Part shown: positions 1,407-55,516 of the stretch, one piece after another
Numbering within the stretch: position 1 is the first letter of the stretch
Layout of the letters: every line of letters starts with the position of its first letter
NCBI GenBank assembly: GCA_016176465.1
Contig: JACOXD010000003.1
Location: 1,824-65,823 of the forward strand
Length of the DNA: 64,000 nt
Source: Candidatus Daviesbacteria bacterium
GTDB lineage: Bacteria; Patescibacteriota; Microgenomatia; Daviesbacterales; UBA10151
Direction of reading: 5' to 3'
Position numbers and translations under genes: made by a program
Notes under the pieces: generated by a model
Database searches by the model: none
What the model was told of the DNA's origin: nothing
Seen by the model: only the letters and a program-made list of their open reading frames with translations

Positions 1407-2627
1407 ATGCGGGGTTTTGCCCATCTGGGTTTATTAATATTGCTTTTAATTGGGATTATAGCAGGAGTTTACTTGGTGACATCAGGCAATTTAAACTTTT
1501 TACCCATAGCCAAAAATGGAGAGATAAAGTTTGTTGATTACAATAATCCTAGCCAAGAGATAACCAGTACTTATATCCCTAGGGTAAAGGTGCGCTTAAG
1601 CGCTCCCTGGCCATTTAAAACAATTAGCTCCCCTATTAAAGATGTAACCACAGTTAAAATTACCCTTGCTGAGGATCCTAAATTTAGTAGAAATACAAAA
1701 TCTCTGGAATCACCATTTGATTTAACAAACAAAGGGCAACTAATTGTTGATTACTCCTTCAGCGAGGCGACTACAAGTACAAAAACTAATACCAAAAAAA
1801 CTAAAAAGGAAGAAAAGCCCAAAGGGGAGAAAAAAGTTTTATACGCCAAATTTGAGTCATCAAATAATAAAAGTAAAGTAAAAAATGCTACCATCAAGCT
1901 TTTGCCCGCTCCAGATAGTATTGCAAACCTCCTTTTAAGTACAACTGCGGCTGATTTATTACCTGATGAAGAATTTAGTGTTAACCTATTAGCAAGGTCG
2001 GACCAGGCTGAGGCTAATTTATTTGTAGCCAAATTAAATTTTAGCAAAGAATTTGCCGAGGTCACCTCCATAGAGACATCTGATTCATTTATCAGCCCTT
2101 CTTTTTTTACTGAGAAAAAATTTGATAACAGTGAGGGGACAATTTCTTTGGTAGGCGGAGTCCCAGCTCCAGGCTATAAAACCCAAGGGGAAGATAAAGT
2201 AATGGCAAAAATCAACTTTAAAGCTAAAAACAATGGTCTTTTTGACTTGCAATTTGCTAGTGATTCAGCAATCTATCGCAACTTAGACAATAAAAATATT
2301 TTGGATCTTAAAAACGGTATTAAAATCCCCATAGGTGGTGTAACAGTTTCTCCTTCCCCGCAATCCTCAGACACTGAATCCTCAACTAGCCCCACTCCTT
2401 CTTCCAGCCCTGGGGAAGGTGGCTCAACAGATGGCTCAACTAAGGGTGATGGCAATGGTGATGGAAAAATTGACTTGGAAGACTTATCTATTTTACTCAC
2501 CTATTTTGGATCAAGTGATTTGGATGAAAATATCATTAACTTGGATATAAATAATGATGGAAAAATAAATACCTTTGATTATTCAGGTTTGGTAGCTCTT
2601 CTCAAAAGTTCTGGGGTAATATCTTAA
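1407..2627 (+). CDS. secreted or membrane-anchored protein with a C-terminal type-I dockerin-like duplicated Ca-binding repeat
   Basis: N-terminal hydrophobic helix (LGLLILLLIGIIAGVYLV). Ser/Thr/Pro-rich linker. C-terminus DGNGDGKIDLEDLSILLTYF ... DINNDGKINTFDYSGLVALL matches the dockerin DxNxDGxIxxxD tandem loops. Confidence 0.6.
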   Translation: MRGFAHLGLLILLLIGIIAGVYLVTSGNLNFLPIAKNGEIKFVDYNNPSQEITSTYIPRVKVRLSAPWPFKTISSPIKDVTTVKITLAEDPKFSRNTKSLESPFDLTNKGQLIVDYSFSEATTSTKTNTKKTKKEEKPKGEKKVLYAKFESSNNKSKVKNATIKLLPAPDSIANLLLSTTAADLLPDEEFSVNLLARSDQAEANLFVAKLNFSKEFAEVTSIETSDSFISPSFFTEKKFDNSEGTISLVGGVPAPGYKTQGEDKVMAKINFKAKNNGLFDLQFASDSAIYRNLDNKNILDLKNGIKIPIGGVTVSPSPQSSDTESSTSPTPSSSPGEGGSTDGSTKGDGNGDGKIDLEDLSILLTYFGSSDLDENIINLDINNDGKINTFDYSGLVALLKSSGVIS

Positions 2628-3235
2628 TTATTTTTTTCTAACACCTCATATAGTACTATCCCCAAACTAACAATGACATTCAAGCTTTTATTTACTCCAA
2701 ACATAGGCAATTCTACTATTGCATCAGAGGCGTCTAGTACTTCTTTTGATACCCCTGTTGATTCATTTCCCACAACAAGACATACAGGTAATTTGTACTC
2801 AAATTTATCATAAAGAACTGATTTAGAGGTTTGTTCAACAGAAATTACTTGTAAATTTGAAATTTTAAGTTTTAAGTTTGAAATTGCCTCACTTGCCGAG
2901 GCACAATACTCCCAGTCTACCCACTCGGTTGTATTAATAGAAGCTTTTTTTATCCGATGATTAGGTGGGGTCTCTGTTGCCCCACAAAGGTAAATTTTTT
3001 TAGCTGCCACAGCATCAGCTAACCTAAAAATAGAGCCTATATTATAAGTGTCCAAAACATTGTCCAAAATAATATAGATATTTTGCTTTTTAAGTTTTTT
3101 ATTCATCCCTCGTAGCTTTAGCGAGGTGGGACCCTTTCTCAGTTGATCTGCGTTTAGCTTTAATTTCATTGCAAAATTATATATTTTTATAAATCTAAGC
3201 TCAACTTTCTTGACTAATAATCTTGATTGAGTCAC
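2624..3235 (-). CDS. SpoU/TrmH-family RNA 2'-O-methyltransferase
   Basis: Motifs LDNVLDTYNIGSIFRLADA, LVVGNESTGVS and LPMFGVNKSLNVIVSLGIVLYE are typical of SPOUT methyltransferases. Confidence 0.75.
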   Translation of the reverse strand: MTQSRLLVKKVELRFIKIYNFAMKLKLNADQLRKGPTSLKLRGMNKKLKKQNIYIILDNVLDTYNIGSIFRLADAVAAKKIYLCGATETPPNHRIKKASINTTEWVDWEYCASASEAISNLKLKISNLQVISVEQTSKSVLYDKFEYKLPVCLVVGNESTGVSKEVLDASDAIVELPMFGVNKSLNVIVSLGIVLYEVLEKNN

Positions 3236-5961
3236 AATTAAAATTAATGAGTGCTGCCCGACTATTATCCACTGTTGTGACCTTGGTTTTATTTTTCTTT
3301 TTTCTTCCTAAGCTTTCTCACGCTGAAACAATTAGCTCGTATAATGGTTCACAAGAGCATATATATTCCTTAGCTGAATATAATGGTAAGCTATATGCTG
3401 GGCAAGGTGCTGGCGGAGGTGATGGAGATATTTATGTTTGTACTTCTGGTATTAATTTAACGTGTGATCCATCAGATTGGGCTATCTCTTACAATGGAAC
3501 CCAGGAAGCAATTTATGATTTAGTAGTTTTTAATGGCAAACTTTATGCCGGACAAGGAGATAGTACTGGTGATGGAGATGTTTTAGTTTTTGATGGTACT
3601 TCCTGGACTACATCCTTTAATGGCTCTCAAGAAAGAATTTATAGCCTAGTTGTATTTAATAATAAGTTATATGCGGGTCAAGGAAGTGGTGGTGGAGATG
3701 GAGATATCTTTGTTTGTAACCCCGCAACCTCTAGTAACTCTACAAGTTGTGAAGCTGGAGATTGGACAAAAAGTTATGAGGGTGGCCAAAATGACATCCT
3801 CTCTCTGGCAGTATTTAACAATAAACTCTATGCTGGTCAAGGAAGTGGTGGCGGAGATGGAGATGTTTTAGTTTTTGATGGTACTTCCTGGACTACCTCA
3901 TATAATGGTGCACAAGAAACAATTAGATCTTTGGGTGTATTTAGTGGCAAACTTTATGCGGGAGTAGGACTTAACGGTGGAGATGGGGATATTCTAAAAT
4001 TTGATGGTACTTCCTGGAGTACTTCTTATGATGGAGGCAATGAGGAGATTCGTTCCTTTGCGGTTTATAACAATAGATTGTACGCAGGACAAGGAGTCAG
4101 TGGTAATGATGCAATTGTATTGGTTTGTAATCCAGGAGGAACTACCTGTGATCCAGGAGATTGGTCCCAGTATGAAAATTATCCAGAGGAAACGATTGAT
4201 GATCTTATAGTGTTTAATGATAAACTTTACGGTGGTCAAGGAAAAGATACTAATAACGGAGATATTTTTATTGTCGCCCAAGCTCCGGGCGCCTTTACCC
4301 TAGAACAACCCACCGCTATATGTAAAATACCTCCTCCAGTAATCTGGTCAACTTCCTTTGATAGTAGTCACAACGAGGTTAATAACCCCACAGCTTTCAA
4401 CAATAAATTATATGTTGGAGAGGGCACTGGCAATAATGAAGGAGACATATGGGCTTGTAACCCAGGGACAAATGGGCTTTGTGATCAACAGTCAGAGTGG
4501 ACTAAATCCTATGACGGACCTGACTCTAAAGACTCTATTGAAGCTATAGAAGTTTTGAAAGACAGATTATACGCAGGTGAAGGCAGCCAAGAAGGCGACG
4601 GTGATACCCAACTATTGAACTCTAGTGGAACATCTTGGAGTAAAGTCCATGATCCAGGATCACCAGATCAGATGCGAGCTTTTGTTGAGTATAAAGGCAA
4701 GTTGTACTCTGGTACAGGAGGTGGAGATGATGAAGGAGATTTATATGTTTGTACACCAGCTGCAGATGGATCCTGTACTTCTTGGAGTAAAACCAAGGAT
4801 TTTGGAAGCGGTATTAGAAAAGTGGAATCACTTCTGGCATACAACGAATATCTATATGTTGGACTTGGTAATCAAGGAGGAGATTCAGATGTTCAAAGAT
4901 TTGATGGGACAACCTGGACTAAAGTTTATGATGGAAGTGTTCAAAGAGTAAAATCACTGATTGAGTATAATGGCATACTTTATTTAGGACTCGAAGGTGG
5001 GGCTAATGAAGGAGATATTATGGCTTGTAATCCAGGACCAAATGGAGCTTGTGACTCTGGGGAGTGGAATATTACTGCGTTTGACGGGAACAATAGTTCA
5101 GTTGATGCTATGACTATATTCGAGAATAAGCTTTATATTGTTGAAGGTACAAATGTCCGCTATTGTACACTGGATGCAGATGGCATTTGTAATACTGATG
5201 ATTGGATAAATATTGACAACTTTCCAGGAGACAATGGTCGAGGTATTGAAGTATTCCAGGATAATCTTTATGTAGCAGGTGGAGACAAGTTGTATTTAGG
5301 TACCCCAAATCCTCAAACCAACCCTTATCCTAGTATAACCCTTGATTGGAGTGCCTCTTTGGGCCTTGATACCAATTCTAGACCCGCCAGTGATTATTAT
5401 GAAGTTTACCGCTCAACTAATGGTATTGACTATAGCTTTGTTGCCTCAACCGGTGCTACCTCCTATGTTGATGAAAATAGTTTACTTCCTAACACTTTAT
5501 ATTATTACTATATCAGAGCAGTCAACCAAATTGGTTCAATTAACTCAAACTCGATCTCTATTCTCAGTACTAATTGTGATACTATTCCACCTTCAGGCTC
5601 TATCAGTTTAGTTGATGAGGAGTGTTATACAAAAGTTACTTTTCCTAATCCTTTAAAAATATACGCGCAAGACGACTACAAAGTAACTGAGGTTACTTAT
5701 AATTTGAGGGGTCCGATAGACCAAAACGGATCTGCAAGTTTAGGTGAGGGTAGCGCTCAAGCAGGCTATTGGTATATTCCAAACCTTGTTAATAATTTAA
5801 TCAATGGTTATTATAGATTGCAAGCGCACATAAAAGACATTGGCGGGAATACTTCTGGAACCCAACCTAGGAATTTCACAATTGCTGATAAGTGTAAGAT
5901 TCCTTTTTTAGAAACCACAGGCGGGAATATTCATTCAAATGAGTCAATAGATTTGCCTTAG
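3223..5961 (+). CDS. large secreted repeat protein: about 15 tandem ~47-aa repeats (beta-propeller-like) followed by FN3-like and Ig-like C-terminal modules
   Basis: Signal/TM segment (LLSTVVTLVLFFFFLP). Repeat unit roughly YNG.QE.IYSL.VFN.KLYAGQG.GGGDGDI.V. The C-terminal ~130 aa are paralogous to the end of CDS 6510..7808 and finish with PFLETTGGNIHSNESIDLP at the stop. Confidence 0.7.
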   Translation: MIESQLKLMSAARLLSTVVTLVLFFFFLPKLSHAETISSYNGSQEHIYSLAEYNGKLYAGQGAGGGDGDIYVCTSGINLTCDPSDWAISYNGTQEAIYDLVVFNGKLYAGQGDSTGDGDVLVFDGTSWTTSFNGSQERIYSLVVFNNKLYAGQGSGGGDGDIFVCNPATSSNSTSCEAGDWTKSYEGGQNDILSLAVFNNKLYAGQGSGGGDGDVLVFDGTSWTTSYNGAQETIRSLGVFSGKLYAGVGLNGGDGDILKFDGTSWSTSYDGGNEEIRSFAVYNNRLYAGQGVSGNDAIVLVCNPGGTTCDPGDWSQYENYPEETIDDLIVFNDKLYGGQGKDTNNGDIFIVAQAPGAFTLEQPTAICKIPPPVIWSTSFDSSHNEVNNPTAFNNKLYVGEGTGNNEGDIWACNPGTNGLCDQQSEWTKSYDGPDSKDSIEAIEVLKDRLYAGEGSQEGDGDTQLLNSSGTSWSKVHDPGSPDQMRAFVEYKGKLYSGTGGGDDEGDLYVCTPAADGSCTSWSKTKDFGSGIRKVESLLAYNEYLYVGLGNQGGDSDVQRFDGTTWTKVYDGSVQRVKSLIEYNGILYLGLEGGANEGDIMACNPGPNGACDSGEWNITAFDGNNSSVDAMTIFENKLYIVEGTNVRYCTLDADGICNTDDWINIDNFPGDNGRGIEVFQDNLYVAGGDKLYLGTPNPQTNPYPSITLDWSASLGLDTNSRPASDYYEVYRSTNGIDYSFVASTGATSYVDENSLLPNTLYYYYIRAVNQIGSINSNSISILSTNCDTIPPSGSISLVDEECYTKVTFPNPLKIYAQDDYKVTEVTYNLRGPIDQNGSASLGEGSAQAGYWYIPNLVNNLINGYYRLQAHIKDIGGNTSGTQPRNFTIADKCKIPFLETTGGNIHSNESIDLP

Positions 5962-6010
5962 TCCTGAGCGTACCTGTACTGAGTGAAGTCGAAGTAGTCG
6001 AAGGATTGAC
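5959..6010. repeat. intergenic, degenerate copy of the short palindromic repeat family (tcctgagcg...cgaaggattgac)
   Basis: GC-rich island directly after the stop at 5961. It shares ctgagcg, gtgaagtcgaag and cgaaggat with the intragenic copies in TatD, PolA and SucC. Confidence 0.4.
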
Positions 6011-6041
6011 AAGAAGGCTGAGTTGAGCAACAATTAAAGTA

Positions 6042-6506
6042 ATGGAACAAACTGCCCCAGTAAAATCTAATTCCAACCTAGGATGGATTGTTGGTATTGT
6101 CCTTACCCTCGCAGCTTTGGCTTTAGGTTTTTTTATGGGAAGAGGATTACTAGCAACTAATCCAGGAAGCATTAATAACCAGGCTTCAGGCAGTGCCACC
6201 ATGGTGAAAACCTCACCTTTATTTAAAGCCCAAACAGCAACTATCCAGGGAAAAATAACTAAAATTGACGGATCAACCATCACTGTAACCTCCCAAGATA
6301 ACCAGGCTGAAACTTTTCCTCTTGATAGCAATTTTACTATTTATAAACATACCTCAGGTACATCTTTTGCAGCAGCCTTACCCGGCTCTGATAAGCAGAT
6401 TGAACTAAATAAAGATTCAATAATTGTTTTAAACGTCAAAGATGGTGATTATAAAGTCTCCTCTATCTCATATCTTTCTCCCCCACCAAAACCGCCGGGG
6501 AGGTAA
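6042..6506 (+). CDS. membrane-anchored hypothetical protein
   Basis: N-terminal TM helix (LGWIVGIVLTLAALALGFFMG) and a Pro-rich C-terminus (PPPKPPGR). Lies in the plus-strand secreted-protein gene string. Confidence 0.5.
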   Translation: MEQTAPVKSNSNLGWIVGIVLTLAALALGFFMGRGLLATNPGSINNQASGSATMVKTSPLFKAQTATIQGKITKIDGSTITVTSQDNQAETFPLDSNFTIYKHTSGTSFAAALPGSDKQIELNKDSIIVLNVKDGDYKVSSISYLSPPPKPPGR

Positions 6507-6509
6507 AAA

Positions 6510-7808
6510 GTGAAATTTTTTTGGGCAATTTTTTTATCCTCATTTTTATTTTCGGGATACCTTTTTTTAACACCATTAAAAGTAAATGCAGACTTTAAAG
6601 GGGAAGGATGTACTATTAAACTTACTGACCCTGGAACAAATAGAGAACCAACCTCTTTGGTAATTGGCAAAACTTATGATTTGGAATCTAGCTTAATTGG
6701 CAGCTGGCAACAGGGCTGCTCTGATTGTGGGAATAGCCATAGTATTAGCTTTAGGGAAGTCAGCGAAAGCTATAATGGAATCTACAGTGATGGTGCGCCT
6801 AGATTACCTGTGCCTGGGACTTCGAAAAAAGCGAAGGGGGATTATATCTCACATGGGCAGTGGGACCCTAGTATAATTGTAAATGGACAGTGTAGAGCAG
6901 GAGGAAAAAGAGCTAGTGGTAAGCGTAATCATGAAGCATGTATTGTCTTTAAGAGTTTTAGTCCAGGAAAAGCTCCTCTTGCTCCAGGCGGCAATGGCAA
7001 AAATGGACCCTGGAGAATTAAATTTACCCCCACAGAAGAAGGGACAACAGCTTTTAATGTCAGAATGTCCAATAACATTAATAACTACTCTGGCGGAGCG
7101 AAATGTTTACGAACAACCCGGGTCTTTAATATCATTGGCCAAAATCTTAGTATAAGATCTAATACTAGCTGTAACTTGGGAACTCCTATTGTTAATTTAA
7201 GCTGGGATGCTAACTCTGGAACTGATCCTCAAAACAGACCAGATTCGGATTACTACGAAGTTTATCGCTTGAGTGGCAATAACTATAGTTTATTGGGTAA
7301 TACCCCAAATTTAAATTACCAGGACCGCTCAAATTTAAACCAAAATTCATCTTATAATTACTACATTCGTGCTGTCAATCCAAATGTCTCTACTAATTAT
7401 CCTGCAATGTCAATCAGAACTCCAAATTGCAGCTCCCCTACTATTGTATCAGTGGAGTTAACCAATAAATGTTATAACCGCTCTACATTTCCTAACCCTT
7501 TAAGGATTTATGCCCAAAACGCCTCAGGCATCAATCGAGTAACTTATGAGCTAATTGGAGACCAAAATGCATCCGGTAGCGCCTCATTAAGAGAAGGAAC
7601 TGCAGAGTCAGGTTATTGGCACACTCCCTTTAACTTAAGCAACCTAACTTTTGGGGAATACCAAATATCTGCGCAGGCTAGTGATAATACAGGGGGCTTA
7701 ACTTCCTCAGCGCCCATTGATTTTAGCTTTGCCCAAAGCTGTGAGCAACCCTTCTTGGAAACAACAGGTGGAAATGTTCACTCAAATAGAGAGATTAATC
7801 TACCTTAA
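6510..7808 (+). CDS. secreted protein, paralog of the C-terminal FN3/Ig module of CDS 3223..5961
   Basis: Signal peptide (FFWAIFLSSFLFSGYLFL). C-terminus (SDYYEVYR ... YYIRAVN ... FPNPLRIYAQ ... PFLETTGGNVHSNREINLP) aligns along its full length with the end of the 912-aa protein. Confidence 0.7.
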   Translation: MKFFWAIFLSSFLFSGYLFLTPLKVNADFKGEGCTIKLTDPGTNREPTSLVIGKTYDLESSLIGSWQQGCSDCGNSHSISFREVSESYNGIYSDGAPRLPVPGTSKKAKGDYISHGQWDPSIIVNGQCRAGGKRASGKRNHEACIVFKSFSPGKAPLAPGGNGKNGPWRIKFTPTEEGTTAFNVRMSNNINNYSGGAKCLRTTRVFNIIGQNLSIRSNTSCNLGTPIVNLSWDANSGTDPQNRPDSDYYEVYRLSGNNYSLLGNTPNLNYQDRSNLNQNSSYNYYIRAVNPNVSTNYPAMSIRTPNCSSPTIVSVELTNKCYNRSTFPNPLRIYAQNASGINRVTYELIGDQNASGSASLREGTAESGYWHTPFNLSNLTFGEYQISAQASDNTGGLTSSAPIDFSFAQSCEQPFLETTGGNVHSNREINLP

Positions 7809-8659
7809 TGAATTTAATTACTGTTAAAAAATTTTTAATTACTTTTCTTTTGTTTCTTGAAACAGCTATTTTATTTTTCATGGTTTATTATAGTCAAGTT
7901 TTTGCCCAAAGTTCGGGCAATTGCCTAAAAGATAATATTGGAGCGAGGGTTGATGGTTTGGTCTCTACCCCCAATTTAGTAAGCGATTTAAAAACAAAAA
8001 CTGGTGAATGTATCATTGACAATGCTGCTATCTCTCCATTACAAGAAGCCAGGATAACCAAAATCAAATCTTATGCTGATTTAAAATCTATCTTTTATGA
8101 TCAGGCAAAAACCACATCATTTGTAGAAAAACACCCCCCATTAGTTGGAAACAAAACTCATTCTGATTTAGATTTAGGAGCACTTGGCGGAAAAGATCAC
8201 CTCTATTTAATTCAAGGAGATCTCTCAATAACTGGAAATATTTCTGGAAGCTCAACTGGAATCATATTTGTTGATGGAAACTTAACTATTGGGGATCCAA
8301 CTTTGCCAAGTTATAAATTGCAGTATGGAAATGATGCATCTGGTTTGGTCTTTGTTGTGGGTAAAGATATAAGAATAGATAAGCTTGTCTCACAAATTGA
8401 CGGGGTGATGATCTCCTCAGGAACTATTTGCACTGCTTGGGATAATGGGGTCTGTCCCCAAGGGGATGTGTTGGTTAATGAAGCACTAGTAATTTATGGT
8501 AGCTTAATCTCCTTAGATGAAAGTAAACCTATTAAGTTTAAAAGAACTTTAACAATAAATACAGATGCATCTGAAATAATTAAGACTCAATTTAAATATT
8601 TGGTAATTTTAAAAAACTCTTTTTCTCAGGATTTATTAATTTCTACAGAGATAAATTAA
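7808..8659 (+). CDS. secreted hypothetical protein (possible beta-helix repeats)
   Basis: N-terminal TM/signal segment. Start overlaps the upstream stop (TAATG). Gly/Ser-rich repetitive strands (GNISGSSTGIIFVDGNLTIGD). Confidence 0.5.
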   Translation: MNLITVKKFLITFLLFLETAILFFMVYYSQVFAQSSGNCLKDNIGARVDGLVSTPNLVSDLKTKTGECIIDNAAISPLQEARITKIKSYADLKSIFYDQAKTTSFVEKHPPLVGNKTHSDLDLGALGGKDHLYLIQGDLSITGNISGSSTGIIFVDGNLTIGDPTLPSYKLQYGNDASGLVFVVGKDIRIDKLVSQIDGVMISSGTICTAWDNGVCPQGDVLVNEALVIYGSLISLDESKPIKFKRTLTINTDASEIIKTQFKYLVILKNSFSQDLLISTEIN

Positions 8660-8664
8660 ATTTA

Positions 8665-9210
8665 TCACTTTCCAAAATTCCTTATTTGCTGCTGATACCA
8701 AACAATCGCTTTTTTTAATTCAATCTTATTAAAATCAGGCCATAAAACTTTAGTGAAATTTTTTACTGCTCGCAATATCTCTGATCTGCCACCATATGAT
8801 AGAGCTAAATTAACTGTAATTGTCTTATTATTAGATGTAGCCTGAATAGTTTCTTTTAAAATTTCCTGAATATCTTGTGGAAAGCGCTCAATCTCGCCAA
8901 TTACAAGTAACCTCACCCCATTTTTTTGCAAATCAGATAATACTCTTTTGCCATGTCGGCGCAGGATATTAAAAATAGCCTCTTTCTCCTCATCTGATCG
9001 GTTCCAATTCTCCGTTGAAAATGCCCAAAAAGTTAAAAATTTTACTCCTAATTTAGCAGCCTCCCTAATGACTGGTTTTAGTTGCCTCCTACCAAATTCA
9101 TGCCCCATAAATGATGGCATTAATCTTTTTTTGGCCCATCTTCTATTACCATCCATAATAATTGCAATATGGGAGGGAATATTATTAGGATCAAGCTTTA
9201 AATTAGACAT
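8665..9210 (-). CDS. uppS: undecaprenyl-diphosphate synthase (cis-isoprenyl transferase), short form
   Basis: Signature motifs HIAIIMDGNRRWAKK, FLTFWAFSTENWNR and the RR-x-G region. At 181 aa it is shorter than the canonical ~250 aa. Confidence 0.75.
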   Translation of the reverse strand: MSNLKLDPNNIPSHIAIIMDGNRRWAKKRLMPSFMGHEFGRRQLKPVIREAAKLGVKFLTFWAFSTENWNRSDEEKEAIFNILRRHGKRVLSDLQKNGVRLLVIGEIERFPQDIQEILKETIQATSNNKTITVNLALSYGGRSEILRAVKNFTKVLWPDFNKIELKKAIVWYQQQIRNFGK

Positions 9211-9227
9211 AAGAGAATTTTACACTT

Positions 9228-9773
9228 TTAGAGGTAGGTTATGCGGGGTACAGAAAAAATCCATATTTGTACAACCCTCTCTCTTAAAGGATTAACTCCT
9301 TGCCCATTTCTGCCATCAAATTCAAAAATACCCACCTGTTGATACCTTCCAAGCTCTAATGCTCCATTTTTAAATGGTATCCAAACAGTTGGGTTCGCAA
9401 AAATTAAAGCCCTTATGTGCCTACCAGTATTATGGTCATTATCCAGTTCAGTAGGTGGTCTAAGAGGGCTGTCAGCACAGTTGTGGGTAAAGTCTAGTGT
9501 CGGATAAGGATAGGGAGGTTCCTGCCCCACAACCCACGTTGATCTGGCATCCTCCGGAACTAACACCCTAGAAAACCTTAAAATATCATCTAGCAACTTC
9601 GTTTCTGCTAGTTCATTTACTAACATCCCTAGCGTAGTGTGCTTTGAATGAACCCCTAATATGCCATGCTTCGCTTTTGATTTTTTCAAAGCCGCGTCCA
9701 CATCAGCGGTTAAATCCCAAATAGCACTAGGATTAGGCGATTCAAAATGTAGTTCTTTTATATACAGACCCAT
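9228..9773 (-). CDS. YjbQ/UPF0047-family protein
   Basis: HTTLGMLVNE ... ALELGRYQQVGIFEFDGRNGQ resembles the YjbQ signature (HTSASL...LGTWQGIYLCEFDG). Confidence 0.5.
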   Translation of the reverse strand: MGLYIKELHFESPNPSAIWDLTADVDAALKKSKAKHGILGVHSKHTTLGMLVNELAETKLLDDILRFSRVLVPEDARSTWVVGQEPPYPYPTLDFTHNCADSPLRPPTELDNDHNTGRHIRALIFANPTVWIPFKNGALELGRYQQVGIFEFDGRNGQGVNPLRERVVQIWIFSVPRITYL

Positions 9774-9814
9774 TTAGTTGCAGGTTATGTTACACTATCT
9801 AATTAGACGATTCT

Positions 9815-10393
9815 ATGAGTAAAGACCCACAATTGCCGGATCCGAAATCTATAACTCATCAAAGCTTTGAAATCTTATATAAAAAATTTGCTCTGCCTTT
9901 AATGAAATTTTTAGTTAAAAGAATGGGTGGCAATATGGATGCTGCTGAGGAGGTTTTTTCTCACACTGTGATGGCTGCCTGGAGGGGGTATCACACTTTT
10001 GAACATAAGAGTAAATTTTTTACCTGGCTTTGTAGGATTGGCTTAAATAAAATGGCTGATTATTATAGAGCTGAGATTAATAGAAGATCAGGTTGGATTG
10101 CACCAGGATTAGAAGAACTAGCTAATATTGGTAGTAAAGAGATCTCTCATGAGGAAAGATTAATCTTAAACGAGCTTCGCCAGTCTGTTAAAGATTGTAT
10201 TGCACTGCTACCACCTGAAAAACAACAACTTCTTCATCTTCGCTACTATAAGGAGATGACTCTTAAAAAAATTGCCGAGGCTTTGGGGATCTCTGAGCGA
10301 GCTGCAGAGGGAAAATTATATAGAGCAAGGATTGAGCTAAGAGAGATTATAATTAATAAATATCCTGAATACTCCCCATTTTCCAAAAAATAA
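9815..10393 (+). CDS. RNA polymerase sigma-70 family (ECF-type) sigma factor
   Basis: Region 2 helix (RIGLNKMADYYRAE) and region 4 HTH (LRYYKEMTLKKIAEALGISERAAEGKLYRAR). Confidence 0.8.
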   Translation: MSKDPQLPDPKSITHQSFEILYKKFALPLMKFLVKRMGGNMDAAEEVFSHTVMAAWRGYHTFEHKSKFFTWLCRIGLNKMADYYRAEINRRSGWIAPGLEELANIGSKEISHEERLILNELRQSVKDCIALLPPEKQQLLHLRYYKEMTLKKIAEALGISERAAEGKLYRARIELREIIINKYPEYSPFSKK

Positions 10394-10433
10394 ATTAGCA
10401 ATCTTTTAAAAATAAATATATAATCGGCCGGTT

Positions 10434-11237
10434 ATGAAAAAGGATTTAATTGTTATTAAAGTGGGTGGGAGTGTTGTAACAGATAAGGATAAGGTCAACC
10501 CTACCCCTAGGTTAGACGTTATTACCAATTTAACTAAGCAAGTAAAAAAAGTTTATTCATCTAAAAAATATAGTTTAGTTTTAGTACACGGGGCTGGCTC
10601 TTTTGCTCATCCATTAGCTAAAAAATATAACTTGCATCAAGGTATGAAAACCAAAGAGCAAAAATTAGGAATGGCTTTGACTCATCAATCACTATATAAC
10701 CTAAATAAATTGGTTCTTTCCGCTTTAATAAAACAATCCCTACCGGCAATAACACTAACCCCCCACTCTTTTATTACGCAATCAGGAGGTAAACTAAATG
10801 ACTTTAATTATCAAATTATTAAAGATTTATTAGGAAAAGATTTAATACCGCTACTTTATGGAGATGTAGTGCTAGATAATAAATGGGGATGCTCTATTCT
10901 TTCAGGAGATACTATTGTTTCTTATTTAGCAAAAAAACTTAAAGCGAAAAAGGTAATTTTTTTATCAGATGTTGATGGAATATATGATTGCGATCCTAAA
11001 AAAAATCCTCACGCTAAATTAATTCCTTTAATAAATAATCAAAATTTTAAAAAAGTTTTAGCGGGAATAACTTCAACAAATAAAGATGATGTAACTGATG
11101 AAATGAGAGGAAAAATTTTATCTATTAAAAATAATCTTGCAGGAGCAAAAGTTATAATTATAAACGGTTTTAAGCAGATAAGCCTAGACCTGGTTGTAGA
11201 TGGACACCAATTGGGGACAAGACTGGAATTCTCCTAG
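10434..11237 (+). CDS. isopentenyl phosphate kinase (amino-acid-kinase fold)
   Basis: IKVGGSVVTDK and LVLVHGAGSFAHP are the IPK / amino-acid-kinase glycine-rich and His motifs. About 267 aa. Confidence 0.6.
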   Translation: MKKDLIVIKVGGSVVTDKDKVNPTPRLDVITNLTKQVKKVYSSKKYSLVLVHGAGSFAHPLAKKYNLHQGMKTKEQKLGMALTHQSLYNLNKLVLSALIKQSLPAITLTPHSFITQSGGKLNDFNYQIIKDLLGKDLIPLLYGDVVLDNKWGCSILSGDTIVSYLAKKLKAKKVIFLSDVDGIYDCDPKKNPHAKLIPLINNQNFKKVLAGITSTNKDDVTDEMRGKILSIKNNLAGAKVIIINGFKQISLDLVVDGHQLGTRLEFS

Positions 11238-11823
11238 CATCAACTTCTAGTTGATCAAACACTTCTTGAGGAATTTGATTGCGCACTTCGTAATGCCTAT
11301 AAACTCCAGGAATAAAGTGTGAATTTGATGATTTAAAAGCTAAATAACCTGTAACTACCTCAAATACTCCTGGTCTAAAACTAAGATTGCCTAGCGGCAA
11401 ATTTAAAACCTCATCTATCCTTGCCCAACGAGGACTATCTACTTCATGAGAATGGGATCCAAGGGACAATCTTGCTCCAGGTGCAGTCTCGATTAGGTAG
11501 GCATGTAAGACTATTCCAGGGCTCAACTCGCACGCTCCTAGTCTGATCGAGGCTAAATCATCAGGATCTTTTAATCCCTTAACTTGCAGTTCTTCTCTAA
11601 AAATCCTCTCTGCTGCACTTTGATGGCTCTCTCCTGGCTCAACAGTCTCACAAGGTATCGCCCACATACCCCTAAGTTTGGCTGTCGCCCTTTTATCTTC
11701 TCGTTCTCTCACTGCTGCGAATTGTCCGGGTCTAGCTGGATCAACTACAAAAGCTCCTACGCCTGCAACTCGCTCTAATACTGCGCCCATATATATTAGT
11801 CGTTTAATATTACAAATCCCCAT
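11170..11823 (-). CDS. Nudix hydrolase
   Basis: Nudix box-like GMWAIPCETVEPGESHQSAAERIFREELQV. GC content is visibly higher than the flanks. The 3' end overlaps the convergent IPK gene by 68 nt. Confidence 0.5.
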   Translation of the reverse strand: MGICNIKRLIYMGAVLERVAGVGAFVVDPARPGQFAAVREREDKRATAKLRGMWAIPCETVEPGESHQSAAERIFREELQVKGLKDPDDLASIRLGACELSPGIVLHAYLIETAPGARLSLGSHSHEVDSPRWARIDEVLNLPLGNLSFRPGVFEVVTGYLAFKSSNSHFIPGVYRHYEVRNQIPQEVFDQLEVDARRIPVLSPIGVHLQPGLGLSA

Positions 11824-11890
11824 AATATTGTGTAAAGCAACAAAATTTTTCGTCTAATTAGAGATGGAGCGTTATAGAAAAAGCTCTTAA

Positions 11891-12427
11891 TCAAAAAAAT
11901 TTTTTTTCTTTTAATAAAGTTATTGCTTTGATAGCCCAAGGTGTATAGTTTTGGGGATTTTTTTCTATATCTTTTAAAAAATTATTTTTATCTTCCCACC
12001 TATATTCATAAGCTACTTGCAGATTTAGCCTAACTTCACCATCATATCTGGCTGTAAAAATAATATCATGCTCGTTCTCACAAAAGTCTCCATACTCTGC
12101 AAAATAATTCACTCCCCCATAATTTTTTAAATTTTCAACTTTTTTTATTCCATATTCTTTACCTAAACAACGCAAAGTTGCCTCCTCATCAGTTTCATCC
12201 TTACCATCTTTTTTATGAAGTTGGTGAGTTGAACCTGTAATATCCCAAATATTGTCAAATATTTGATGTTTTCTTCTCTGTAACAATATTTCTCCCTGGG
12301 AGTTATAGACTAAAACAGTGATAGCAAAATGTCGTTTACCTAATCCAGTATGTCCTACACTTTTGGGAAAATACTCACCGCTAAACTTCCCGTTTTCATC
12401 AGCACCCAAAATTATCTGATCAATCAT
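11891..12427 (-). CDS. idi: isopentenyl-diphosphate delta-isomerase, type 1 (Nudix-fold), divergent
   Basis: Aligns with E. coli Idi: [19 protein letters not shown] against [32 protein letters not shown] against NEVCPVFAAR, and a C-terminal PWA. The catalytic Cys position is Ser here. Confidence 0.6.
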   Translation of the reverse strand: [178 protein letters not shown]

Positions 12428-12430
12428 AGG

Positions 12431-13435
12431 TTAAAAAATTTTCCGTGGATTTTTTTCAACAGGAGCAAACCTGATCCTTCTTTCTCTTTCTACTAATTCA
12501 GCTAAACCATCCTCTCTTATATCTTGGACTCCCATCTGCCAGAAAAAGTTTACTACACCTTCCACTAAAACTTCAGGAGTTGAGGCAGCAGAGGTAACAG
12601 CAACTACTTGAGTACCATACATTTCAGGACTTAGATCTTGCCAGCCAGCAATCAACTGTGCAGGAGTTCCCTCTTGCCAAGAAGTCTTGCCTAGCATTTT
12701 ACCATTATGACTTCTTGTACCTGTTACTACTAAAAATTTACCTGCTTTTTTGGCAAGAAATCTCACAGCTTCTTGCCTATCGTCAGTAGCATGACATATA
12801 CCATCGACAATCACCGCATGAGGAAATATTTTACATAAAGCAGATCTCGTTGCCTCAGTTTCAGTCGTACTTAATGTAGTTTGATTCGTAATAATAATCC
12901 CTCTTTCTGTATGATCGTTAGGAAGTTGTAAATTACGAGCTTGATCTATATCCTCTACTGGATAAACTCTATCCGGTGCTACCCCATAAACAGCTAACTG
13001 CTCGGGATGTCCTCTTTTAGAAATATCAATCACATAAGACCCATTTTGGGAAGCCCTTTGCCAAACAATTCTTTGTCTAGTCATAACATAAGGACAAGCA
13101 GTATTAGCCCAGTCTAGTCCTAACTCATCAGCTAACTTAAATTGATAAGGAGGAGTTCCGTGGGCTCTAAAAATTGTTCGGGAACCTTGGGGAATTGAGG
13201 CTAGATCTTCTGGTTCTACCACCCTTACCCCTAATGCTTTTAACCTAGCTATCTCATACTCATTATGAATTGGTTGACCTACGACAGTAGGTCCAGGTTT
13301 CCCTTCTTCTCTTGCTTTTATTGCCTCACCTTCAATAAATTCAACTGTGCGAATTACACCTGCACATTGACCACGAGGATTGGCAAGAAGTATTGTTTCC
13401 GGAATAATTCCCCATGGACGAATTATTTCTGCCAT
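12431..13435 (-). CDS. ispH: 4-hydroxy-3-methylbut-2-enyl diphosphate reductase
   Basis: LLANPRGQCAGV (first Fe-S Cys motif), IFRAHGTPP and NTACPYV match the LytB/IspH signatures. Confidence 0.85.
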   Translation of the reverse strand: MAEIIRPWGIIPETILLANPRGQCAGVIRTVEFIEGEAIKAREEGKPGPTVVGQPIHNEYEIARLKALGVRVVEPEDLASIPQGSRTIFRAHGTPPYQFKLADELGLDWANTACPYVMTRQRIVWQRASQNGSYVIDISKRGHPEQLAVYGVAPDRVYPVEDIDQARNLQLPNDHTERGIIITNQTTLSTTETEATRSALCKIFPHAVIVDGICHATDDRQEAVRFLAKKAGKFLVVTGTRSHNGKMLGKTSWQEGTPAQLIAGWQDLSPEMYGTQVVAVTSAASTPEVLVEGVVNFFWQMGVQDIREDGLAELVERERRIRFAPVEKNPRKIF

Positions 13436-13454
13436 ATATTATTAGTCTTAAAAC

Positions 13455-14210
13455 TTAATTAGATCCCTCAAGCAGGGAAACAGCAAAATAAACCACTAAA
13501 ACCCCAAGGATTAAAAGACAAACTTGGATAAAAGATACACTTCTTTTATCCTGGCTGTGAATCTCTGGGATTAAATCTGAGGCTGCTATATAAATAAAAA
13601 AACCTGCAGATATTGCCAGCACTATTGGCAATAATCCCTCTATGGAATCTTTTATAAAAAAAGTAAGTACTGCTCCAACCATGGCAGTCAGCGCAGAAAA
13701 AAAGTTCCAAAATAAAACTTTTTTAGGTTTAATTCCCCGATGCAACATTACACCAAAGTCCCCTATTTCTTGAGGAATTTCATGAGCTGCAACAGCTAGT
13801 GAGGTTATAACTCCTAAAGGAATATTCACTAAAAAAGTAGCTGCGATAACCACTCCATCTATAAAATTATGGATTGAATCCCCAAAAATAATTAAAGGAA
13901 CAGTTGAGGGTTTTTCCTTGGGAGAATGCTCGTGATGATGGTGAAACCAGGAGATAAAGTGCTCTAAGATAAAAAAGGTTAATATTCCAAAAAGCACCCA
14001 GAAAAATATATTAACTTCCTTTTCTGCTTCAAAAGCTTCAGGCATTAAATCAAAAAAAGCAGTTCCAAGCAAAGTTCCAGCTGCAAAAGAAGCTAAGAAG
14101 TGAGAAATATTGGTAGCAATTTTTTCCTTTGCTATAAGCAATACTCCCCCAACTAGGGAGACCACACTTCCTATAAAACTAAACACTAAAATATATGTAA
14201 AAGTATCCAT
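13455..14210 (-). CDS. ZIP-family metal (Zn/Fe) transporter
   Basis: Multi-TM protein with a His-rich loop (HHHHEHSPKEK) and the ZIP signature AHEIPQEIGDFGVML. Confidence 0.75.
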   Translation of the reverse strand: MDTFTYILVFSFIGSVVSLVGGVLLIAKEKIATNISHFLASFAAGTLLGTAFFDLMPEAFEAEKEVNIFFWVLFGILTFFILEHFISWFHHHHEHSPKEKPSTVPLIIFGDSIHNFIDGVVIAATFLVNIPLGVITSLAVAAHEIPQEIGDFGVMLHRGIKPKKVLFWNFFSALTAMVGAVLTFFIKDSIEGLLPIVLAISAGFFIYIAASDLIPEIHSQDKRSVSFIQVCLLILGVLVVYFAVSLLEGSN

Positions 14211-43867: not shown

Positions 43868-44566
43868 TTAGGGTGAACTTATGGGGCTAGCAGTATTGTT
43901 AAGGTAATGAGCACAAAGCCCAGGTGTTCTGGCAATAATAAACACTGCATTAGCTAACTTTGCTTCCCAGCCAAAGCTACAAAGTACAACAGCAATAGCT
44001 GCATCTATATTAGCAGGCAAAGTTATCCCTTTTTGAGCTTTAAGCTCTGCTTCTAAATCTTTAGCTACTTTAATAAATTCCCCACCAAGTCCTGCTTCCT
44101 CAAGCTTTTTAAAAATTAGCTGGGTCCTAGGATCAGCCTCTTTGTAAACTCTATGCCCAAACCCAGGCATCCTTTTCCCCTCTTTTAAATATTCTTCTAC
44201 CAAATTTCCTATTTCGTATTTCGTATTTCGTATTTTATATAGAATCTCCATACAAGGTTCTATTGCACCCCCATGAGACTCATTTATCTGTAAAATCCCA
44301 GCTGCAATAGCCTCAGATAAAGTTTTTCCATCTTTTGCAGCATTAACTGTTGCTACTCCAGATGGAGAGTTTGGACCATGATCTATAGAAAGATTTAAAA
44401 TAAGCTCAAATATTTTTTCTTCCTGCTTAGAAGGAGTTTTTTCTGATAAAAGTTCAAAAATTAGTGAGGCAAAGCTTCTCTGCTGAGAGATCTCCAAATG
44501 ATTTTCTTCCCCAAACAATGCGGGTTTGCTTTCATCATTATCTTGATGTGTTATTGTCCTAGCCAT
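43868..44566 (-). CDS. truncated citrate-synthase-fold protein (citryl-CoA lyase-like module)
   Basis: Citrate synthase signature MPGFGHRVYK and GPNSPSGVA. At 232 aa it is about half a citrate synthase, like the ATP-citrate-lyase CCL module. Confidence 0.6.
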   Translation of the reverse strand: MARTITHQDNDESKPALFGEENHLEISQQRSFASLIFELLSEKTPSKQEEKIFELILNLSIDHGPNSPSGVATVNAAKDGKTLSEAIAAGILQINESHGGAIEPCMEILYKIRNTKYEIGNLVEEYLKEGKRMPGFGHRVYKEADPRTQLIFKKLEEAGLGGEFIKVAKDLEAELKAQKGITLPANIDAAIAVVLCSFGWEAKLANAVFIIARTPGLCAHYLNNTASPISSP

Positions 44567-45460
44567 TTATAATGCTCCTTTCACTAAACTTGCTATTTGA
44601 TCAAAATCATCAGCTACTAAAACTCCTGCATCTTTTAAAATTTGCCTTTTTATATCTGGTTTCCCTCTATCCCCTTCAATTATTGCTCCTGCGTGTCCAA
44701 ATTGTACATCAGATGGCAAGCGTTCTGTAAATTCCCCACCAATATATGCAACCACAGGCTTTTTAATTTTACCCTGTTTTTTTAAGATACTTACTCTCTC
44801 CTCATAAGTTCCACCTAATTCACCAAAAATAACAGAGGCTTTTGTTTTAGGATCATCTTCAAGGGCCAACAAAAAGTCCCCAAAGTCAGTGCCAATTATC
44901 CTATCTCCACCAATCCCAACAGCCCAAGATATACCTAAACCATGGTTTTTTAAATGAATCCCAATTTCAGATGTCATCCCTCCTGATTTAGAAATAATAG
45001 CTACTTCTCCATCTATAAATGCTCTCTCAGGAGTTGCACCTCCAATTGAGCCTATCTTTATTTTTCTACTTGGACAAATCATCCCAACTGAGCTTGGGCC
45101 AACTAAGCTAATTCCATTTTTTTTAGCTAAAGCATAGATATAAGATTCATCCTTAGTAGGGACTTTTTCTGTAACAATGAGTATAAATTTTACTCCAGCC
45201 TCTATTGCCTCTACTGCTGCACCTTTTACAAAAAGAGGTGGTACATAAAGGACTGTTCCATCAATTTCCCCCACAACTTCTTTGGCTTCTCCAACTGAAT
45301 TAAAAACTGGTAAACCTAAGATTTCTTGTCCACCTTTTCTAGGAGTTACCCCAGCCATAACTTTTGTTCCATAATCAAGCATGGTTGGTAAGGCAGTAGA
45401 CCCTTCAGAACCTGTAATACCTTGACCAATAATTTTTGCTCCCTCTGGTAAAAGTAACAT
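44567..45460 (-). CDS. succinyl-CoA synthetase alpha-like subunit (CoA-binding, phospho-His)
   Basis: GITGSEGS (CoA-binding Gly loop) and the phosphohistidine loop QFGHAGAII. Confidence 0.8.
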   Translation of the reverse strand: MLLLPEGAKIIGQGITGSEGSTALPTMLDYGTKVMAGVTPRKGGQEILGLPVFNSVGEAKEVVGEIDGTVLYVPPLFVKGAAVEAIEAGVKFILIVTEKVPTKDESYIYALAKKNGISLVGPSSVGMICPSRKIKIGSIGGATPERAFIDGEVAIISKSGGMTSEIGIHLKNHGLGISWAVGIGGDRIIGTDFGDFLLALEDDPKTKASVIFGELGGTYEERVSILKKQGKIKKPVVAYIGGEFTERLPSDVQFGHAGAIIEGDRGKPDIKRQILKDAGVLVADDFDQIASLVKGAL

Positions 45461-46095
45461 TATTTAACAACCTCCTGTGCTTGTATACTGTAAAGTTGAG
45501 AAGGCTTTTTTTCTGGATATTTTTCTAAGTACTTCTTAACTATATTGAAACCTAAAGTATAACCAGTCCATTTAGGAATGTTTCTATCCCCCATTCCAAA
45601 AAACCATTCGTTATGATCGTATTCTTTTGTAAATTCCTTTTTAGCTAACTCACTAAACTTTTGTAGTTGTTTTTCAGTTAATGCTAAGTCCCATTTTTCT
45701 GGTTCGCCATCTAAATATTCCATTTCAAAATGGTCTGCCAAACCTTCGCTTACAAGAGCTTCAAGTAAAGTCTTACCATACCCAGGATTTTGCCAGCGAA
45801 TTGCATGATGAAGTTCATGTGCAAGAATTCTAGGCAAATTTTTAGCAATAGAGTTATTAATATTAGGGAATTTGGGATCTAAATAAAGATTAATAAGATA
45901 AGTGTTTTGAGCATATCCTCCAATTCCTAGATGTTCTATCGCTCCCAATGGATTGTCTTCAACAATAACGTCTAAATCAGGCAAAGGAAGTAATTGTACA
46001 ACTTCACTTTTAACTTTTTTTATAATTTCTTCAATTTTTTTTGAGAATGGAATTAATCTACCGCTAGCTTTTAATATATAGATTCCTCCGTTCAT
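45460..46095 (-). CDS. HExxH-motif protein (DUF2268-like putative Zn hydrolase)
   Basis: The only motif is LAHELHHAIRW. It sits between the SucC-like and SucD-like genes with a start/stop overlap. Confidence 0.4.
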   Translation of the reverse strand: MNGGIYILKASGRLIPFSKKIEEIIKKVKSEVVQLLPLPDLDVIVEDNPLGAIEHLGIGGYAQNTYLINLYLDPKFPNINNSIAKNLPRILAHELHHAIRWQNPGYGKTLLEALVSEGLADHFEMEYLDGEPEKWDLALTEKQLQKFSELAKKEFTKEYDHNEWFFGMGDRNIPKWTGYTLGFNIVKKYLEKYPEKKPSQLYSIQAQEVVK

Positions 46096-55424: not shown

Positions 55425-55442
55425 TCAAAATAGAGCCTGTTG

Positions 55443-55516
55443 TGGGCGGACCTGGACTCGAACCAGGAACCGGAAATGTATAAGATTTCTGCGCTAACCA
55501 ATTGCGCCATCCGCCC
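55443..55516 (-). tRNA. tRNA-Ile (anticodon UAU)
   Basis: Clean cloverleaf. Acceptor GGGCGGA/UCCGCCC. D-arm GCGC-AAUUGGUUA-GCGC. Anticodon stem GAAAU/AUUUC with loop CUUAUAC (U33, anticodon UAU, A37). T-loop UUCGAGU. A73. Confidence 0.75.

Follow-up and report, generated by a model that had tools for sequence, protein, structure and literature searches.

The interval 8665-13435 of a 64-kb stretch of DNA (the window; 36% GC) from a Candidatus Daviesbacteria bacterium, a member of the Microgenomates within the Candidate Phyla Radiation (CPR), holds a mosaic cluster of isoprenoid genes. An original prediction had placed five genes there: a cis-prenyltransferase (UppS), an isopentenyl phosphate kinase (IPK), a Nudix hydrolase (here Nudix217), a protein resembling type 1 isopentenyl diphosphate isomerase (IDI-1) and IspH, the reductase of 4-hydroxy-3-methylbut-2-enyl diphosphate (HMBPP). 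All five were recovered with the same identities and coordinates from open reading frames (ORFs) and from Pfam and NCBIfam profiles. The ORF list, however, contained seven genes: a YjbQ/UPF0047 family protein and an extracytoplasmic function (ECF) sigma factor also lie inside the interval, and an in-frame deletion of 54 amino acids (aa) in uppS had been overlooked (Table 1). Proteins identical to those of the window are deposited in GenBank as MBI2011207–MBI2011214, from a contig of 69,688 bp. The IspH stop codon lies 3 nucleotides (nt) from the IDI-like start codon, the sigma-factor gene leads into the co-directional IPK gene across 40 nt, and the IPK and Nudix217 genes are convergent with 3' ends that overlap by 68 nt.

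Table 1. Genes of the isoprenoid cluster and its bordering ZIP gene, with window positions and profile scores
Product	Position	Strand	Evidence
UppS (cis-prenyltransferase), allele with 54-aa internal in-frame deletion	8665-9210	-	PF01255, 172 bits, two stretches
YjbQ/UPF0047 family protein, directly upstream of UppS	9228-9773	-	PF01894, 69.4 bits; TIGR00149, 63.2 (cutoff 67.75)
ECF-type sigma-70 factor	9815-10393	+	Sigma70_r2, r4_2; TIGR02937, 87.6 bits
Isopentenyl phosphate kinase (IPK)	10434-11237	+	NF040647 IPPK_Arch, 228.8 bits (cutoff 120)
Nudix-family protein Nudix217	11170-11823	-	PF00293, 42.6 bits
IDI-1-like protein	11891-12427	-	NF002995, 63.2 bits (cutoff 127); TIGR02150, 51.6 (cutoff 105.8)
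IspH/LytB-type HMBPP reductase	12431-13435	-	PF02401, 188.9 bits; TIGR00216, 185.4 (cutoff 187.85)
ZIP metal transporter (backbone neighbour, not a pathway gene)	13455-14210	-	PF02535, 156 bits

The surroundings of the cluster were compared with those of IDI-like homologues from 80 species-representative genomes and from several contigs found by exact look-up, about 90 loci altogether (numbered with the prefix L). Synteny was scored by tblastn, and counts refer to 48 species-level loci with adequate flank, 24 with and 24 without a mevalonate operon. The loci share a backbone of CPSase/MFS/RecF–Fic–DNA ligase–PHP protein–PRT–Pth–(DUF3105/DsbA)–ZIP on one side and UppS–SpoU methylase on the other. 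The ZIP gene forms the upstream border of a variable slot and stands directly upstream of the IDI-like or IspH gene in most related mevalonate and mosaic loci.

Three states of the slot were found. State A (24/48 loci, e.g., L003, L004 and L007) consists of the IDI-like gene, the genes MVD-PMVK-MVK-OB-fold-thiolase-HMGS-HMGR, a trans-prenyl diphosphate synthase (trans-IPPS) and UppS. State C was found in three contigs (L171, L174 and L175) as an operon of the methylerythritol phosphate (MEP) pathway, Dxr-IspD-IspF-IspE-IspG-IspH-trans-IPPS-UppS, without IDI, IPK or Nudix genes; L171 is a 677-kb contig whose backbone proteins are 38-55% identical to those of the window, and L174 is of the Curtissbacteria type. 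State B, that of the window, has the general order [ZIP]-[IspH]-IDI-like-Nudix217-[PLC-like]-[GT2-like]-IPK-[ECF sigma]-[trans-IPPS]-YjbQ-UppS, and its loci also vary in carrying IspH with or without IspG and with or without Dxr.

At this slot the mevalonate operon and the genes typical of the window exclude one another. IspH was present in 6/24 operon-less loci and in 0/24 mevalonate-type loci, a close IPK in 8/24 vs 0/24, Nudix217 in 7/24 vs 0/24, and YjbQ, usually between trans-IPPS and UppS, in 10/24 vs 0/24 (p = 0.0006). Fisher p-values for these four genes against the mevalonate operon ranged from 0.02 to 0.0006. The sigma factor followed the same division, with close homologues (at least 50% identity) recurring in mosaic loci (6/24 operon-less vs 0/24 mevalonate-type). 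In 13 related loci a Nudix217 homologue adjoined IPK, and none stood beside a mevalonate operon; the convergent pairing of the two genes also occurred in L017, L025, L027, L057, L072-L074, L081 and L173. The loci recorded with YjbQ are L012, L019, L022, L025, L027, L030, L050, L058, L072-L074 and L081.

Some mosaic loci contained further MEP genes. IspG (GcpE, 401 bits) accompanies IspH and the IDI-like gene in L027 and L058, standing between the two or next to them, and the IDI-like gene of L025 has IspH on one side and, immediately on the other, a Dxr in which all three Pfam domains are present. More than 110 Microgenomates Dxr proteins are 52-88% identical to that of L025, some of them named as Daviesbacteria, Curtissbacteria and Blackburnbacteria. 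In two Daviesbacteria assemblies Dxr is solitary among unrelated genes, so MEP genes can be scattered in Daviesbacteria genomes. Beyond IspG and Dxr, no MEP gene was found among the unassigned ORFs of the mosaic loci, which encode an MFS transporter, HAD hydrolases, purine genes, an ABC transporter, a PRPP synthetase and a GreA-like protein. The metagenome matches of the L027/L058 IspG came mostly from ordinary bacteria with a GC of 0.5-0.7 (52-61% identity), and because these nearest relatives belong to ordinary high-GC bacteria they hint at a horizontal origin of this IspG; they say nothing on the completeness of the pathway in the group.

Other lineages were seen to combine these genes differently. 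The sole related low-GC contig in the IspG scan, L134 (Ga0247841_10031793, GC 0.33), is small and has adjoining genes for a distant IDI-like protein (28%), IspG and a distant IPK (36%), so that MEP and IPK genes are combined in this lineage as well. L048 and L071 carry a divergent mevalonate operon (MVD-like protein 44-45%, 'PMVK' 25-26%) with an IPK that is 34-36% identical to that of the window, which may represent an IPK-dependent alternative mevalonate route in Microgenomates. The Daviesbacteria-like representatives (among L009-L084) are often titled 'uncultured Gammaproteobacteria bacterium' (binchicken), and a few Chloroflexi or Acidobacteriota; their gene order is that of Daviesbacteria, and the titles are therefore unreliable.

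The IspH of the window is labelled 'hypothetical protein HYS91_00445' in GenBank and scored just under the TIGR00216 equivalog cutoff, with other equivalogs lower still. Its LYTB domain is full-length (residues 15-296 cover positions 1-264 of 267 in PF02401). When aligned with E. coli IspH and 117 homologues, the protein retained C12, C96, C197, E126, T167/168, H41, H74, H124, S225, N227 and S269, and the single change among the catalytic and binding positions checked was S226 to His. In E. coli IspH we take C12, C96 and C197 to hold the [4Fe-4S] cluster, E126 and T167 to be catalytic, and H41, H74, H124, S225, N227 and S269 to bind the diphosphate. Only two homologues exceeded 40% identity (P0122 and P0123, 48-50%), and the next stood at approximately 37% or less. 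As a metagenome-scan query the protein found no relative, and beyond the window its lineage is limited to two short contigs: L172, with the order Pth-DUF3105-ZIP-IspH-IDI-like and thus the same ZIP-IspH-IDI succession, and L173, with ZIP-IspH-Nudix217-IPK and no IDI gene. The protein is predicted to be an HMBPP reductase of a rare, divergent, long-branch lineage.

The Fe-S cysteines and E126 were kept in all ten IspH proteins found at the slot. These proteins formed at least four groups, all with intact catalytic residues; identity was only 24-30% between groups and 29-41% to E. coli IspH. The insertion of their genes now on one side of the IDI-like gene and now on the other suggests repeated recruitment of IspH or its very fast divergence.

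The IDI-1-like protein shares its fold, its His3Glu2 metal site and the equivalents of Glu116, Tyr104 and Trp161 with type 1 isopentenyl diphosphate (IPP) isomerase (E. coli Idi, human IDI1). Its AlphaFold model (pLDDT 95.5) had E. coli and human IDI-1 as its top nine solved-structure matches (TM 0.78-0.82, root-mean-square deviation 2.2-3.2 Å). The metal ligands H26, H33, H68, E117 and E119 (H25, H32, H69, E114 and E116 in E. coli) are kept, as are E91, Y108, W164, K22 and R52 (E87, Y104, W161, K21 and R51). The metal ligands and the equivalents of E87, Y104 and W161 were invariant or nearly so in 120 close homologues and in 81 family members from species-level loci.

The protein also differs from type 1 isomerases. 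The original prediction had noted Ser in place of Cys67; the motif it quoted was confirmed in the sequence, and alignment with ...WTNSVCGHP of enterobacterial IDI bore out the substitution (Ser66). The 120 close homologues had Ala (83), Ser (36) or Gly (1) and no Cys at this position; in the 81 species-level loci it was A in 42, S in 30 and I in 5, again with no Cys. A different cysteine, Cys116, is invariant and directly precedes the E-N-E metal motif (V113 in E. coli), and the subfamily has a four-residue insertion with a near-invariant His71. E. coli K55 is replaced by His54 and R83 by Cys87 in the protein of the window, with R83 replaced by Cys or Ala across the subfamily. It is at Cys67 that the protein falls outside the curated IDI-1 family, and both IDI equivalog scores were below cutoff.

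When 1.84 billion representatives were searched exhaustively, 117 IDI-1-like sequences retained an intact metal site, and covariation of the two cysteine sites was measured in these. Among the 55 sequences with Cys67, Cys116 occurred in 2 and a Cys at 116 or 121 in 11; among the 62 without Cys67 the corresponding numbers were 30 and 55 (Fisher p = 1.6e-8 for Cys67 vs Cys116). Since loss of Cys67 co-varies with gain of a Cys at 116 or 121, the IDI-like protein is no one-off defect but belongs to a large coherent subfamily in which the catalytic thiol appears to have been relocated. The idea of a relocated thiol rests on this covariation.

The subfamily probably still functions as an IPP isomerase. 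It supplies the sole IDI-like gene beside the mevalonate operon in 32 loci (24/48 of the well-covered ones), and in L085 the gene is fused to a polyprenyl_synt domain (9989-11551). The operons in question are classical ones ending in diphosphomevalonate decarboxylase; as IPP is the sole product of this enzyme, such operons need an isomerase. The missing Cys67 noted in the original prediction is confirmed, but the suggestion drawn from it, that the protein may not be a true isomerase, is weakened by the family-wide absence of Cys67, including in the 32 copies beside mevalonate operons. An alternative function, as a hydrolase or hydratase acting on C5 or prenyl diphosphates, or as an isomerase of isopentenyl phosphate (IP) and dimethylallyl phosphate (DMAP) working with IPK, is unlikely. 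The Ser, Ala or Ile at the Cys67 position, the replacement of two E. coli diphosphate-binding cations (K55 and R83), the new invariant Cys116, His71 and His54, and the equivalog scores would all fit such a function; the conserved IDI-1 fold and active-site residues, the position beside the mevalonate operons, the fusion to a trans-prenyl synthase and the relocation-like gain of cysteine (55/62 vs 11/55) argue against it.

Assignment of the kinase as an IPK, also part of the original prediction, was upheld. The runner-up family to NF040647 was argB (60.5 vs 228.8), and the top solved-structure matches were all IPKs (E 3e-44 to 3e-28), with UMP kinase at E 6e-11. The motif HGAGSFAH aligns with HGGGSFGH of chain 8u0k, and its His, in G-S-F-x-H, is what we take to be the conserved His of the phosphate-binding motif. 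A glutamate, aspartate or UMP kinase was ruled out by the NF040647 score and the solved-structure matches.

Nudix217 gave only weak MutT-like matches among solved structures (closest, MutT2, E 5e-5), and no substrate class could be assigned from that search. Its Nudix box reads ...EPGESHQSAAERIFREELQV and is partly degenerate relative to the canonical GX5EX7REUXEEXGU, with RE changed to RI. The EE pair and the upstream Glu residues are kept in the 13 homologues, which also have in common a C-terminal extension with an F/L-RPG-x-x-E motif. In L016 the gene is fused to polyprenyl_synt (1264-2751), and this Nudix217–prenyl synthase fusion supports a putative prenyl-diphosphate-related substrate.

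For the YjbQ/UPF0047 family a secondary thiamin-phosphate synthase activity is documented, and its primary function is not established. ThiL/AIRS-like kinases adjoin IspH in L013 (6172-7137) and L085 (from 7877), and L050 contains a THI5/NMT1-like binding protein with an ABC transporter (11258-13814). The activity of the family, the ThiL-like kinases and the THI5-like protein together suggest that YjbQ may be linked to thiamin diphosphate, the cofactor of Dxs.

GC at the first and second codon positions (GC1 and GC2) was raised above that of the neighbouring genes in IspH, Nudix217 and YjbQ (0.52-0.60 and 0.40-0.44, respectively), while GC at the third position (GC3) was host-like (0.22-0.34). 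From this combination of raised GC1/GC2 and host-like GC3 we infer that these three genes were acquired long ago from GC-richer donors and then ameliorated. The IPK and IDI-like genes had a native-looking codon-position GC. A recent foreign island was ruled out by the host-like GC3 of all genes. A promoter scan performed no better than on shuffled sequence, and promoter and terminator scans were not used as evidence. An Rfam scan for riboswitches, such as a thiamin diphosphate (TPP) riboswitch upstream of YjbQ, found none and matched two tRNAs only.

The uppS gene of the window encodes 181 aa and lacks 162 bp in frame relative to a 235-aa allele in L001 (5553-6260) that is otherwise 100% identical at the DNA level. 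The deletion removes ...RTGGVSRTSGFLPWQ..., and its junction has a microhomology of 1-2 nt. The UppS domain was still recognized (TIGR00055 168.7, cutoff 109.55), but the catalytic domain, which in full includes a C-terminal R-T-x-G-E…R-x-S-x-F-x-x-W-Q region, is incomplete: the 54 missing residues cover RTGGVSRTSGFLPWQ. Since the short form occurs in the GenBank contig only and the full allele in two other, independent assemblies, the deletion must represent a variant present in a minority of the population or else have arisen during assembly. In L049 a 602-aa cis-trans prenyltransferase was seen in which UppS is fused to polyprenyl_synt (10556-12364).

The remainder of an isoprenoid pathway was sought throughout the window. 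Another 30 ORFs were scanned against Pfam, and none matched the MEP pathway, the mevalonate pathway or a prenyl synthase. The mevalonate enzymes of L003 (HMGS, HMGR, MVK and the decarboxylase) had no match in the 64 kb by tblastn, nor did these enzymes appear by Pfam. E. coli Dxs, Dxr, IspD, IspE and IspF, used as queries, likewise had no tblastn match in the 64 kb. When Dxr, IspD, IspF, IspE, IspG and trans-IPPS of a related MEP operon were used, IspH alone was matched, and no trans-prenyl diphosphate synthase was found within the 64 kb, where relatives have one adjoining UppS. The original observation that no other MEP or mevalonate gene was in view thus holds, by Pfam and tblastn, for the whole window.

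The locus is read here, with somewhat better than even probability, as a mosaic state following replacement of a mevalonate operon by MEP enzymes, the upstream genes of which would lie elsewhere in the genome. The ancestral slot is presumed to have held the IDI-like gene, the seven-gene mevalonate operon, trans-IPPS and UppS, with the operon presumably lost in this Daviesbacteria lineage; we infer this direction of evolution at the slot. HMBPP would most likely be supplied by the upstream MEP enzymes encoded elsewhere and would be converted by IspH, probably co-transcribed with the IDI-like gene, to IPP and dimethylallyl diphosphate (DMAPP). The IDI-like protein could then tune the IPP:DMAPP ratio. 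The convergent IPK/Nudix217 pair may interconvert IP/DMAP and IPP/DMAPP as a plant-like buffer or recycling loop, UppS would turn the products of IPP and DMAPP into the lipid carrier, and YjbQ may supply thiamin diphosphate for Dxs.

Several observations weigh against a replacement of this kind. The MEP pathway needs neither IDI, IPK nor Nudix, and a pathway swap alone leaves their tight conservation unexplained. Among the eight well-covered mosaic loci with a close IPK, five show no IspH within ±10 kb. Dxs, Dxr, IspD, IspE, IspF and IspG are all absent from the window, as is trans-IPPS, and the uppS allele is damaged. The IspH of the window comes from a rare lineage and shares no more than 24-29% identity with its counterparts at the slot, which makes inference from those loci indirect. 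By accession range, the Daviesbacteria Dxr proteins MBI2021752 and MBI2595761 belong to other genomes than the window's MBI2011207-214, and no Dxr of the clade usual in the group was attributed to the window's genome, a negative but uninformative result. That genome lies outside the species-representative set (best IDI match 65%) and appears incomplete. Because Dxr stands alone elsewhere in Daviesbacteria genomes, the lack of upstream MEP genes in the 64 kb is weak evidence.

The original prediction had favoured salvage of phosphorylated C5 intermediates rather than de novo synthesis, which was not supported as stated. In such a scheme de novo synthesis would have been lost; HMBPP or methylerythritol cyclodiphosphate (MEcPP), for IspH with or without IspG, and IP/DMAP or alcohols, for IPK, would be imported from a host or community; IspH, IPK and the IDI-like protein would deliver IPP and DMAPP, and the Nudix protein would trim diphosphates. 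We regard this as quite unlikely. In its favour, organisms of this kind live as episymbionts, and their small genomes encode few biosynthetic pathways; the mevalonate operon is missing at the very place where relatives carry it, the 64 kb contain none of the upstream MEP genes and no Dxr could be attributed to the genome. The conserved core of the operon-less loci is moreover IDI-like–Nudix217–IPK, with IspH in some only, L173 has nothing but ZIP-IspH-Nudix217-IPK, and species of the group without most mevalonate genes keep an IPK of 'enigmatic' function beside IDI-I (PMC6107057). A pathway swap is nevertheless the simpler account, because the slot holds a full mevalonate or MEP operon in related lineages, sister mosaic loci contain IspG and Dxr (the committed MEP step), and Dxr is scattered in Daviesbacteria. 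Furthermore, the module is not regularly accompanied by a transporter or an alcohol kinase, and we know of no precedent for bacterial uptake of diphosphorylated C5 compounds. If salvage were true, this would be the first bacterium living on salvaged late MEP intermediates. Very doubtful is the bolder combination of a lineage without a de novo pathway that would live on HMBPP from its host by way of IspH (with MEcPP as well where sister lineages have IspG) and on C5 monophosphates by way of IPK, and would balance the products with a new class of IPP isomerase that has its thiol moved from 67 to 116.

A decaying relic, in which a host-dependent symbiont would have lost its isoprenoid pathways, uppS and perhaps IspH would be non-functional and the carrier would come from the host, is highly improbable: the 54 residues missing from uppS include a conserved substrate-binding motif, trans-IPPS is missing from the window and present in most related loci, and IspH is long-branched and under its equivalog cutoff, but every ORF is intact, IspH retains all catalytic residues, the intact uppS comes from two independent assemblies of the same population, and the gene order and the IPK/Nudix overlap are kept across many species, which argues for selection on the locus.

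The reading as a replaced mevalonate operon was set beside known systems. According to Hoshino and Gaucher (2018; PMC6107057), most Microgenomates have a full mevalonate pathway and an IPK, IPK and IDI-I are syntenic in CPR, including in species without most mevalonate genes, the mevalonate genes are clustered with cis-IPPS, MEP genes are sparse in CPR, and the function of the IPK in CPR is enigmatic. As far as IPK, IDI and UppS are concerned, the locus is therefore already known. The window resembles that mevalonate cluster in belonging to Microgenomates, in its IDI-I-like gene, in its IPK beside IDI-I and in UppS at the cluster end; it differs in lacking the mevalonate genes and in having IspH, a dedicated Nudix gene, YjbQ and the ECF sigma factor. 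The main text of PMC6107057 names IspH 0 times, has no Nudix, YjbQ or ECF sigma factor, and treats IDI-I as ordinary, leaving the missing Cys unremarked.

With the bacterial MEP operons of L171, L174 and L175 the window has in common the intact IspH residues and the same slot and backbone, upstream of UppS. It differs from them in that Dxr, IspD, IspF, IspE, IspG and trans-IPPS are missing from the 64 kb, in that its IspH is approximately 32% identical to the operon IspH, and in that IDI, IPK and Nudix occur in the window only. The alternative mevalonate route of archaea and Chloroflexi (MVK, phosphomevalonate decarboxylase, then IPK) uses an IPK of the same equivalog family, and the divergent IPKs of L048 and L071 are paired with divergent mevalonate operons. 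In contrast, neither in the window nor in the loci with close relatives of its IPK does a mevalonate kinase, a decarboxylase or an HMG-CoA synthase/reductase lie nearby.

In plants, going by the passages of PMC8248349 that cite Henry et al. (2015, 2018), IPK and Nudix enzymes (AtIPK and AtNudx1,3) regulate the balance of IP and IPP. Relative to the plant pair as presented there, the window likewise pairs an IPK with a Nudix protein where the main route needs no IPK, a pairing that here is genomic, as a convergent and overlapping gene pair kept in 13 or more loci; no sequence relationship was seen past the Nudix fold, and the Nudix box of the window is the partly degenerate one described above.

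Searches of the literature on IspH in CPR/Patescibacteria, on isoprenoids in Daviesbacteria and on Cys67-less IDI found nothing relevant. Undescribed in the literature searched are the three-state slot with in-place exchange of mevalonate and MEP genes, the exclusive tie of IspH, Nudix217 and YjbQ to the operon-less state, and the IDI-1 subfamily with Cys116 and without Cys67.

Three further regions of the window were recorded. Between SpoU and UppS (1407-8659, + strand) lies a series of large proteins of secreted or surface type, comprising a dockerin-domain protein, a 912-aa repeat protein, two paralogues with similar C-terminal halves and, at 7808-8659, a 283-aa protein of the cluster c7 family, which follows UppS in ten related loci. 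An ATP-citrate-lyase-like set, unusual for so small a bacterial genome, is split over three ORFs at 43868-47306 (- strand): a citrate-synthase-like C-domain (43868-44566), a CoA-binding/succinyl-CoA-ligase-like protein (44567-45460) and an ATP-grasp plus citrate-binding protein (46092-47306), with a DUF2268 peptidase gene sitting between these ORFs. A tRNA-Ile with the anticodon TAT (UAU), an uncommon means of reading AUA in bacteria, is located at 55442-55516 (- strand) and adjoins a gene annotated without a function.

Isoprenoid precursors are essential for the cell-wall lipid carrier, and their supply in ultra-small symbiotic bacteria is unsettled. A slot that holds a mevalonate, MEP or mosaic gene set in close relatives is a rare in-place record of the replacement of an essential pathway, and it identifies a set of genes that travels with the pathway change, namely IspH, IPK, a dedicated Nudix gene and YjbQ. 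The type 1 IDI-like subfamily without Cys67 and with a gained Cys poses a concrete, testable question of enzymology, and in the pairing of IPK with a Nudix protein bacteria may have an equivalent of the plant loop that controls IP and IPP.

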